DNA from: Escherichia phage vB_Eco_T-01
Sequence record: PQ438391.1
Direction: 5' to 3' (one strand)
DNA length: 64,000 bases
Part shown: positions 17,220-17,873 of the stretch, piece after piece
Position numbering within the stretch: the first letter of the stretch is position 1
Layout of the letters: every line of letters begins with the position of its first letter
The notes under the pieces: model-generated
Databases searched by the model: none
Told to the model about the DNA's origin: nothing
The model's input: only the letters and a program-made list of their open reading frames with translations
Translations under genes and position numbers: made by a program

Positions 17220-17422
17220 ATATAATTAATAAGATTTTTGGAATTCAGTACATTAAGGTCACATATAAAGTAACAGATAAAAATCCATATACTGATGAAC
17301 ATGAAGAACCACAAGTTGAGTCTGTTATATTAGAAAAGGACCCTAACTGGCCAGTTGAATTTCGTCTTCCTTGCTATGGTCATTGGGCTGATGTTGAAAT
17401 TATAAGTATTGAAAATGTCTGA
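17216..17422 (+). CDS. Hypothetical protein, 68 aa
   Basis: ORF; ATGA overlap. Confidence 0.5.
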   Translation: MNIINKIFGIQYIKVTYKVTDKNPYTDEHEEPQVESVILEKDPNWPVEFRLPCYGHWADVEIISIENV

Positions 17423-17873
17423 GTTAGAGATTAGAAGCAATTTTAGATGGCCATCATGCGCATTAAGTAATTTTGCCCAATGGCCTTTCGTCATGGATGG
17501 TATTCAATTTGGAGGTCTTGAAGGATTCCTCCAAGGGTGCAAGGTGAAAAATGTTGAACAACAGCGTCGTGTATTTGGGTTATCCGGGCTTGCCGCCCAA
17601 CAAGCTGGAAGGTCTTATGCAAGAGCTCAGGACCGTGGGACCCTCTTCTGGCTTGGAGTTCCGTTTTCAAGATACTCACCAGCGTGGAAAGAGTTGTACA
17701 CAAATGCATATTTTGAAGCAGCGATTCAAAACAAGGGGTTTCGTGATGCCTTACAAGCCTCTAAAGGAAAAATTTTGAAGCATAGCATGGCTAGTGGTCT
17801 AACAAAAGATGATACAATACTAACCGAAGCTGAATTTATTGATGTGTTAAACCTATTAAGAGACTCTCTATGA
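17409..17873 (+). CDS. YbiA/NADAR-family (DUF1768-like) protein; 30.3-like position
   Basis: 154 aa; ...LSNFAQWPFVMDGIQFGGLEGFLQGCKV... resembles the conserved SNF..WP...DG...E.FQ..K core of E. coli YbiA. Confidence 0.6.
   Translation: MKMSELEIRSNFRWPSCALSNFAQWPFVMDGIQFGGLEGFLQGCKVKNVEQQRRVFGLSGLAAQQAGRSYARAQDRGTLFWLGVPFSRYSPAWKELYTNAYFEAAIQNKGFRDALQASKGKILKHSMASGLTKDDTILTEAEFIDVLNLLRDSL

Follow-up and report, generated by a model that had tools for sequence, protein, structure and literature searches.

What does the small ORF upstream of the DNA ligase gene in the genome of Escherichia phage vB_Eco_T-01 (PQ438391.1) encode, and could its product remove ADP-ribose from DNA that has been modified by a host toxin? 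The window analyzed here is a 64,000-nucleotide stretch of this genome. A sequence-only reading had described the ORF at bp 17409-17873 (plus strand) as encoding a 154-aa YbiA/NADAR-family protein and had proposed it as a candidate counter-defence against the DarT toxins of DarTG systems. Both the ORF and the residues of the core on which that reading was based are present. Numbered as in the protein discussed below, the core consists of S18-N19-F20, W23-P24, D28-G29, E36, F38, Q40 and K43. The spacing of the second half of this motif had been given loosely as DG...E.FQ..K and is in fact DG-IQFGGL-E-G-F-L-Q-GC-K.

Locus and gene identity

The plus-strand ORFs between 13.6 and 22.7 kb of the window are cd (encoding dCMP deaminase), 31.2, 31.1, 31, rIII, 30.9-30.1, 30 (encoding DNA ligase, PF01068), alt.1 and alt. 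This gene order is that of T4 between 132.7 and 123.4 kb, with the T4 reference in the opposite orientation. The window is a segment of a T4-type myovirus, and the phage is a relative of T4 (Tequatrovirus-like) rather than T4 itself. The best nucleotide match to a 1.8 kb stretch around 30.3 is Shigella phage vB_SboM_Phaginator (98.2% identity), and 667 phage records match this stretch in a megablast search.

Judged by sequence and position, the ORF at 17409-17873 is orthologous to gene 30.3 (AdfN) of phage T4. The window protein and T4 gp30.3 are equal in length and identical at 149 of 152 residues with no gaps, and the only three differences (V53/I, I120/V and M125/I, with the window residue first) are conservative. 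The two genes differ at 19 nucleotides, and in the 30.3 frame 16 of these changes are synonymous and three are non-synonymous. This excess of synonymous changes indicates that the 30.3 frame is under purifying selection and is a real gene.

Annotated T4 gene 30.3 (bp 128307-128765) is 459 nt in length, and the ATG at bp 17415 of the window gives a gene of the same length that encodes 152 aa. Translation is likely to start at this ATG and not at the TTG at bp 17409, both because the corresponding ATG is the annotated start in T4 and because the numbering of E36 and K43 fits the ATG alone. The reading frame is indeed open from the TTG, as the 154-aa product described earlier requires, but the protein itself is probably two residues shorter. 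The start of 30.3 overlaps the stop of 30.4 (ATGTCTGA) as it does in T4. A promoter and terminator scan was uninformative, with 21 promoter-like sites compared to 19.9 expected. The features of the locus are listed in Table 1. Homologs of the window protein were found in 1510 phage records representing many host genera, and in these approximately 1500 records the gene is almost always labelled 'hypothetical protein'.

Table 1. Features of the gene 30.3 (adfN) locus in the analyzed window
Feature	Position (bp)	Strand	Comments
Gene 30.3 / adfN CDS	17415..17873	+	152 aa plus stop; predicted stand-alone NADAR-fold ADP-ribosylglycohydrolase
TTG-AAA, two codons preceding the ATG in the mechanical ORF	17409..17414	+	Probably outside the translated protein
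Gene 30.4, upstream neighbour	17216..17422	+	Stop overlaps 30.3 start by 8 nt
Gene 30.2, downstream neighbour	17870..18730	+	ATG overlaps 30.3 stop (ATGA), as in T4
N-terminal motif S18-N19-F20...W23-P24...D28-G29	17466..17501	+	SNF invariant, D28/G29 nearly so (76 homologs); aligned with YbiA
Glu36, predicted catalytic residue	17520..17522	+	Codon GAA; invariant in both alignments; aligns with YbiA glutamate
Lys43, predicted to coordinate ADP-ribose phosphate	17541..17543	+	Codon AAG; at least 90% conserved; aligns with YbiA Lys
His123, marker of the phage gp30.3 clade	17781..17783	+	Codon CAT; invariant in 76 homologs; follows predicted strand 120-122
C-terminal alpha-helix, residues 138-151	17826..17867	+	Intact; from predicted model
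Nested ORF 30.3', 75 aa	17551..17778	+	+1 frame inside 30.3; T4 annotation; Pfam DUF2883, E-value: 1.6e-45

Family assignment and NADAR fold

The window protein matches PF08010 (Phage_30_3, 'Bacteriophage protein GP30.3') over the full length of the model (positions 1-138; E-value: 6.9e-70; 233.7 bits with a cut-off of 36) and also matches PHROG 652, a family without an assigned function. In a direct Pfam scan the protein had no match to PF08719 (NADAR) even at an E-value ≤ 1, scans with NCBIfam and PADLOC models gave no match, and a direct sequence search of PDB chains had as its best result an unrelated ATP pyrophosphatase (E-value: 0.53).

A large protein database contained 104 homologs, all with PF08010; JGI gives several of these the name 'YbiA (DUF1768 family)', and in one a PF08719 match is also precomputed. 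When aligned homologs were scanned one by one, 18 of 47 matched PF08719 (best E-value: 1.5e-7). A search of PDB sequences with an HMM of the family gave a single match below an E-value of 0.01, E. coli YbiA (2b3w; E-value: 0.0031). In the HMMER alignment, SNF, DG, the glutamate, Q and K correspond column for column to those of YbiA (segment FSNFAAWPIKVDGKTWPTSEHYFQAQK). The predicted structure shows the alpha-helical core flanked by two small beta-hairpins that defines the YbiA/NADAR fold, and the three structures to which the 30.3 fold was tied are the same three that have been reported for T4 gp30.3 (PMC11825919). Based on the PF08719 matches of these homologs, the match of the family profile to YbiA and the structure, the 30.3 product clearly belongs to the NADAR superfamily, within the phage gp30.3 clade. 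The earlier reading would have abandoned its proposal if no significant NADAR profile match were found. Because the direct PF08719 scan is empty, applying this rule literally would wrongly discard the finding; the profile evidence comes instead through the homologs and the family profile.

The PADLOC candidate model PDC-M42C is weakly matched by 50 of 76 gp30.3-family proteins (best E-value: 2.1e-5) and not by the window protein. These matches suggest that a NADAR-like component may be present in a candidate bacterial defence system.

Membership in this superfamily raises the question of whether 30.3 encodes a housekeeping N-glycosidase of the YbiA type whose substrates are intermediates of the riboflavin pathway, the role assigned to E. 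coli YbiA. The fold and the N-terminal motif are common to both proteins, and some homolog records carry the names 'YbiA (DUF1768 family)' or 'swarming motility YbiA-like protein'. However, the last-strand Glu that defines YbiA is a His in the 30.3 product and throughout its clade, and the gp30.3 cluster is phylogenetically closest to DarG1-type NADARs, not to YbiA (PMC11825919). The two proteins also differ in Pfam family (PF08719 NADAR/DUF1768 for YbiA, PF08010 for the window protein). YbiA is a housekeeping protein that is encoded in a LexA-controlled operon and has a role in riboflavin metabolism (PMC11125620, PMC11825919), while riboflavin damage control would be of no obvious use to a lytic phage and the phenotype demonstrated for 30.3 is directed against DarTG1. 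We find a YbiA-type function scarcely credible. The YbiA/NADAR label is correct with respect to the superfamily, as seen in the family profile and the fold, but the protein is not YbiA proper.

Active site and integrity of the protein

In an alignment of 76 homologs, the invariant positions include P13, A16, L17, S18, N19, F20, F25, E36, G37, F38, Q40, H123, L136 and T137, while K43, D28 and G29 are conserved in at least 90% of sequences. The equivalent of K43 in the E. coli C7 NADAR, K95, is essential (PMC11543638). The residue on the last strand separates NADAR clades: it is His in phage gp30.3, Glu in YbiA and Asp in DarT1-linked NADARs/DarG1 (PMC11125620, PMC11543638). From the alignment and the predicted model, H123 is assigned as the probable last-strand catalytic position of the gp30.3 clade, the presumed counterpart of E125 in PnNADAR. 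The structure prediction and active-site comparison that had been recommended for this ORF thus show a NADAR fold in which E36, K43 and H123 are conserved.

The window protein is complete at 152 aa and ends in ...EAEFIDVLNLLRDSL. The integrity of this end is relevant because of phage RB69, which carries an orthologous 30.3 gene at the same position with a T inserted after nucleotide 410, giving a 137-aa product that lacks the last helix. We reproduced this frameshift from the RB69 record; in the window, the extra T (which would lie between bp 17824 and 17825) is absent. The truncation makes RB69 sensitive to DarTG1 and constitutes a natural loss-of-function allele (PMC11825919).

Published activity of T4 gp30.3 and comparison with related NADARs

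Gene 30.3 has been renamed adfN, for anti-DarT factor NADAR (Johannesman et al., Nat Commun 2025, PMC11825919). In that study, recombinant phages placed the determinant of DarTG1 resistance in T2 and T4 within the 3' part of 30.3, deletion of adfN left both T4 and T2 unable to form plaques on DarTG1 hosts, and RB69 was rescued by ectopic adfN(T4). The E36A, K43A and RB69-like truncated forms of AdfN(T4) were impaired; the E36A and K43A proteins were partly active in vivo and the E36A protein was inactive in vitro (PMC11825919). Purified AdfN strips ADP-ribose from DarT1-modified DNA, does not interact with DarT1 in a two-hybrid assay and leaves DarTG2 unaffected (PMC11825919). Consistent with this, T4 gp30.3 hydrolyzes guanosine-ADP-ribose but not thymidine-ADP-ribose on DNA in vitro (Cihlova et al. 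2024, PMC11125620). Transposon insertions in T4 30.3/adfN are lost specifically on DarTG1 hosts (preprint, bioRxiv 10.1101/2025.11.20.689424). The counter-defence role suggested from the raw sequence is therefore published for a 98%-identical ortholog, with the restriction that it concerns the guanine-modifying DarT1 only and not the thymine-modifying DarT2.

The window gene shares with adfN(T4) its product length of 152 aa, its location upstream of the ligase gene with 30.4 and 30.2 on either side, both gene overlaps, E36, K43 and H123, and the C-terminal helix. It differs in several respects from DarG1, the NADAR antitoxin of DarTG1 (represented by the Geobacter lovleyi NADAR 8bat and the E. 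coli C7 NADAR). First, it has no adjacent DarT1: the neighbouring genes 30.4 and 30.2 contain no DarT domain, and T4 adfN has likewise been published as an orphan (PMC11825919). Second, DarT1-linked NADARs carry an N-terminal extension, whereas the window protein is a bare core without it (PMC12945103, PMC11825919). Third, the last-strand Asp of DarG1 is replaced by His123. In addition, AdfN(T4) cannot replace DarG1 in uninfected cells (PMC11125620, PMC11825919). AdfN(Bas32) and AdfN(Bas60), from T5-like and Vequintavirinae phages, resemble AdfN(T4) in that they are stand-alone, guanine-specific proteins that counter DarTG1. Unlike the T4-type protein, they come from other NADAR clades, represent independent acquisitions and need no phage-specific context (PMC11825919).

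That context sets AdfN(T4) apart. Its full effect is seen only in T-even infection, independently of cytosine modification, and non-T-even phages are rescued only weakly (PMC11825919); T4 gp30.3 expressed alone does not rescue E. coli from DarT1 (PMC11125620). The lack of rescue in uninfected cells and the weak rescue of other phages indicate that a picture of DNA repair by one enzyme is incomplete. AdfN(T4) needs an additional T-even factor or context, a point already raised in the literature (PMC11825919).

The main substrate of 30.3 could also be something other than DarT1-modified DNA, such as guanine-ADP-ribosylated RNA produced by other toxins or soluble immune signals derived from ADP-ribose, with the anti-DarTG1 effect being secondary. 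The T4 NADAR does reverse guanosine ADP-ribosylation on RNA in vitro, although less efficiently than the E. coli C7 NADAR (PMC11833690), the authors of the AdfN study proposed that such factors may detoxify further ADP-ribosylating defences (PMC11825919), and the family is spread over 1510 phage records from many host genera. Yet the phenotypes of 30.3 have so far been DarTG1-specific, as 30.3 is not needed on plain K-12 but is essential on hosts with DarTG1 (PMC11825919, bioRxiv 10.1101/2025.11.20.689424). For soluble derivatives, no activity of gp30.3 is reported in the cited AdfN and NADAR literature, and for cytidine-ADP-ribose the phage NADAR is not among the active NADARs in the summary table of PMC12945103. 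We consider a different main substrate unlikely.

Relationship to the phage ADP-ribosyltransferases

The earlier reading had also noted alt, placed 3 kb downstream, and had proposed that the block holds both writing and erasing activities for ADP-ribosylation. Taken strictly, this proposal makes the 30.3 product the eraser of modifications written by phage-encoded ADP-ribosyltransferases (Alt or ModA/ModB) within a self-contained module. Alt is present at bp 20694-22748 (PF03496, E-value: 3.1e-33), 2.8 kb downstream, and shares both its strand and the conserved block with 30.3. An ADP-ribosyltransferase and a predicted ADP-ribosyl hydrolase are thus both encoded here. The proposed functional link is unsupported for the following reasons. 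First, the substrates differ: according to the T4 record, Alt is a capsid-delivered mono-ADP-ribosyltransferase that targets RNA polymerase, a protein, while T4 gp30.3 has been shown to act on ADP-ribose attached to guanine in DNA and RNA (PMC11125620, PMC11833690). Thymine-linked ADP-ribose is not hydrolyzed by T4 gp30.3 (PMC11125620), and ADP-ribose on phosphate ends is not processed by NADARs, as shown for the E. coli C7 NADAR (PMC11125620, PMC11833690). Second, four genes (30.2, 30.1, the ligase gene and alt.1) separate 30.3 from alt. Third, this proximity is not conserved, as no alt is annotated in the 4 kb flanking each end of the 30.3 homolog in JSE, RB43, D525, RHph_Y68 or RsoM2USA. 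An eraser partnership with Alt, ModA or ModB is highly improbable.

The neighbours of 30.3 homologs in other phages are of a different kind. The homolog adjoins the ligase gene directly in JSE, and in RB43 it lies near both 30.2 and the ligase gene. In Vibrio phage D525 its neighbour is SbcCD, and in Rhizobium phage RHph_Y68 genes for a helicase, endonuclease V and RNase H are close by. This DNA-metabolism neighbourhood in distant phages fits a DNA-directed role for 30.3.

Genes of the gp30.3 type also occur well outside the Tevenvirinae (for example, in Ralstonia phage RsoM2USA), usually among DNA replication and repair genes. In Acinetobacter phage Abraxas, a putative ADP-ribose pyrophosphatase gene (nudE) is located approximately 2.5 kb upstream of the 30.3 homolog in the same block. 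Two further small ORFs flank alt in the window. The 62-aa product of alt.1 (bp 20456-20644, plus strand) matches PF24647 ('Phage blade protein', E-value: 1.9e-29) and is annotated as conserved hypothetical in the T4 record. Just 3' of alt, a 67-aa ORF (bp 22934-23137, plus strand) encodes a sequence similar to Alt residues ~64-130 (MMHIV...KQYKIDAC...). Its T4 counterpart is alt.-1/alt.-2; according to the T4 record, this is an ancient, incomplete copy of the beginning of alt that is broken by a stop.

Nested ORF 30.3' and gene 30.2

The nested ORF 30.3' was considered as a selected second product of the locus and rejected. In the overlap there are 12 nucleotide differences from T4, of which 10 are non-synonymous and two synonymous for 30.3', while 10 are synonymous for 30.3. 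In RB69 the 30.3' frame reaches a stop after 34 codons, and in Morganella phage MP1 it is closed by many stops. In all likelihood, the DUF2883 family exists because the DNA of 30.3 is conserved and not because a second protein is under selection. Two database proteins, P0015 and P0016, combine PF08010 with PF11097, which suggests that they are frameshifted 30.3 alleles that read into the 30.3' frame.

The product of gene 30.2 (286 aa) has an N-terminus, MKPTILTDIDGV, that resembles motif I of the HAD superfamily (DIDGV). Residues 4-98 show weak similarity to a 5'(3')-deoxyribonucleotidase (PDB 2jao, E-value: 1.1), and the Abraxas homolog matches PF00702 (HAD, E-value: 1.1e-4) and NT5C (E-value: 0.017), both below the respective cut-offs. 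Gene 30.2 may encode a HAD phosphatase or nucleotidase that has escaped annotation.

The T-even partner of AdfN might be encoded in the same block, for example by 30.2, with 30.3, 30.2 and the ligase gene acting as a cassette for DNA de-ADP-ribosylation and clean-up. As a conserved partner of 30.3, however, 30.2 was rejected. It is found in 1452 phage records compared to 1510 for 30.3, a distribution that tracks the whole T4 superfamily and does not discriminate, and the adjacency of the two genes is broken in JSE and outside the Straboviridae. Gene 30.2 also diverges faster, with 55 records at 95-99% identity compared to 616 for 30.3. Conservation of the neighbours around 30.3 homologs gave no signal that discriminates a T-even partner. 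We regard a partner encoded within this block as very unlikely.

Proposed function and implications

Based on these results, bp 17415-17873 encode the ortholog of T4 gp30.3/AdfN, very probably an anti-DarT1 guanine-ADP-ribose hydrolase that consists of a bare 152-residue NADAR core. This assignment follows from the activity and phenotype of the 98%-identical T4 protein, combined with the orthology, fold and residue conservation of the window gene, whose frame is intact over its full length and under purifying selection. By analogy with the T4 protein, the window allele would hydrolyze DarT1-derived ADP-ribose and would be required for growth on DarTG1 hosts, and the residues V53, I120 and M125 should leave its function unchanged.

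In the proposed mechanism, the DarT1 toxin of the host would ADP-ribosylate guanines in replicating phage DNA, and the 30.3 enzyme would cleave the N-glycosidic bond that joins ADP-ribose to the amino group of guanine. Cleavage would restore normal DNA, allowing replication to proceed and neutralizing the DarTG1 defence. Glu36 and Lys43 are predicted to position the distal ribose and the diphosphate of ADP-ribose, and His123 would fill the last-strand catalytic position that is occupied by Glu in YbiA-type and by Asp in DarG1-type NADARs. The C-terminal helix would be needed for full activity. The protein would resemble an orphan antitoxin, its mode of action would be enzymatic, not toxin binding, and its specificity for guanine-linked ADP-ribose would make the enzyme useless against the thymine-modifying DarT2.

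The identification of this gene from the raw sequence was correct, but the gene was already known: the gene itself, its fold, activity and phenotype, and a natural null allele have all been published. The value of the finding lies mainly in annotation, as the function has been established since 2024-2025 while database records still read 'hypothetical protein'. An intact adfN predicts that a phage will be resistant to guanine-targeting DarTG1, while RB69-type frameshift alleles predict sensitivity, and the state of adfN is useful to consider when choosing or engineering therapeutic T4-like phages.
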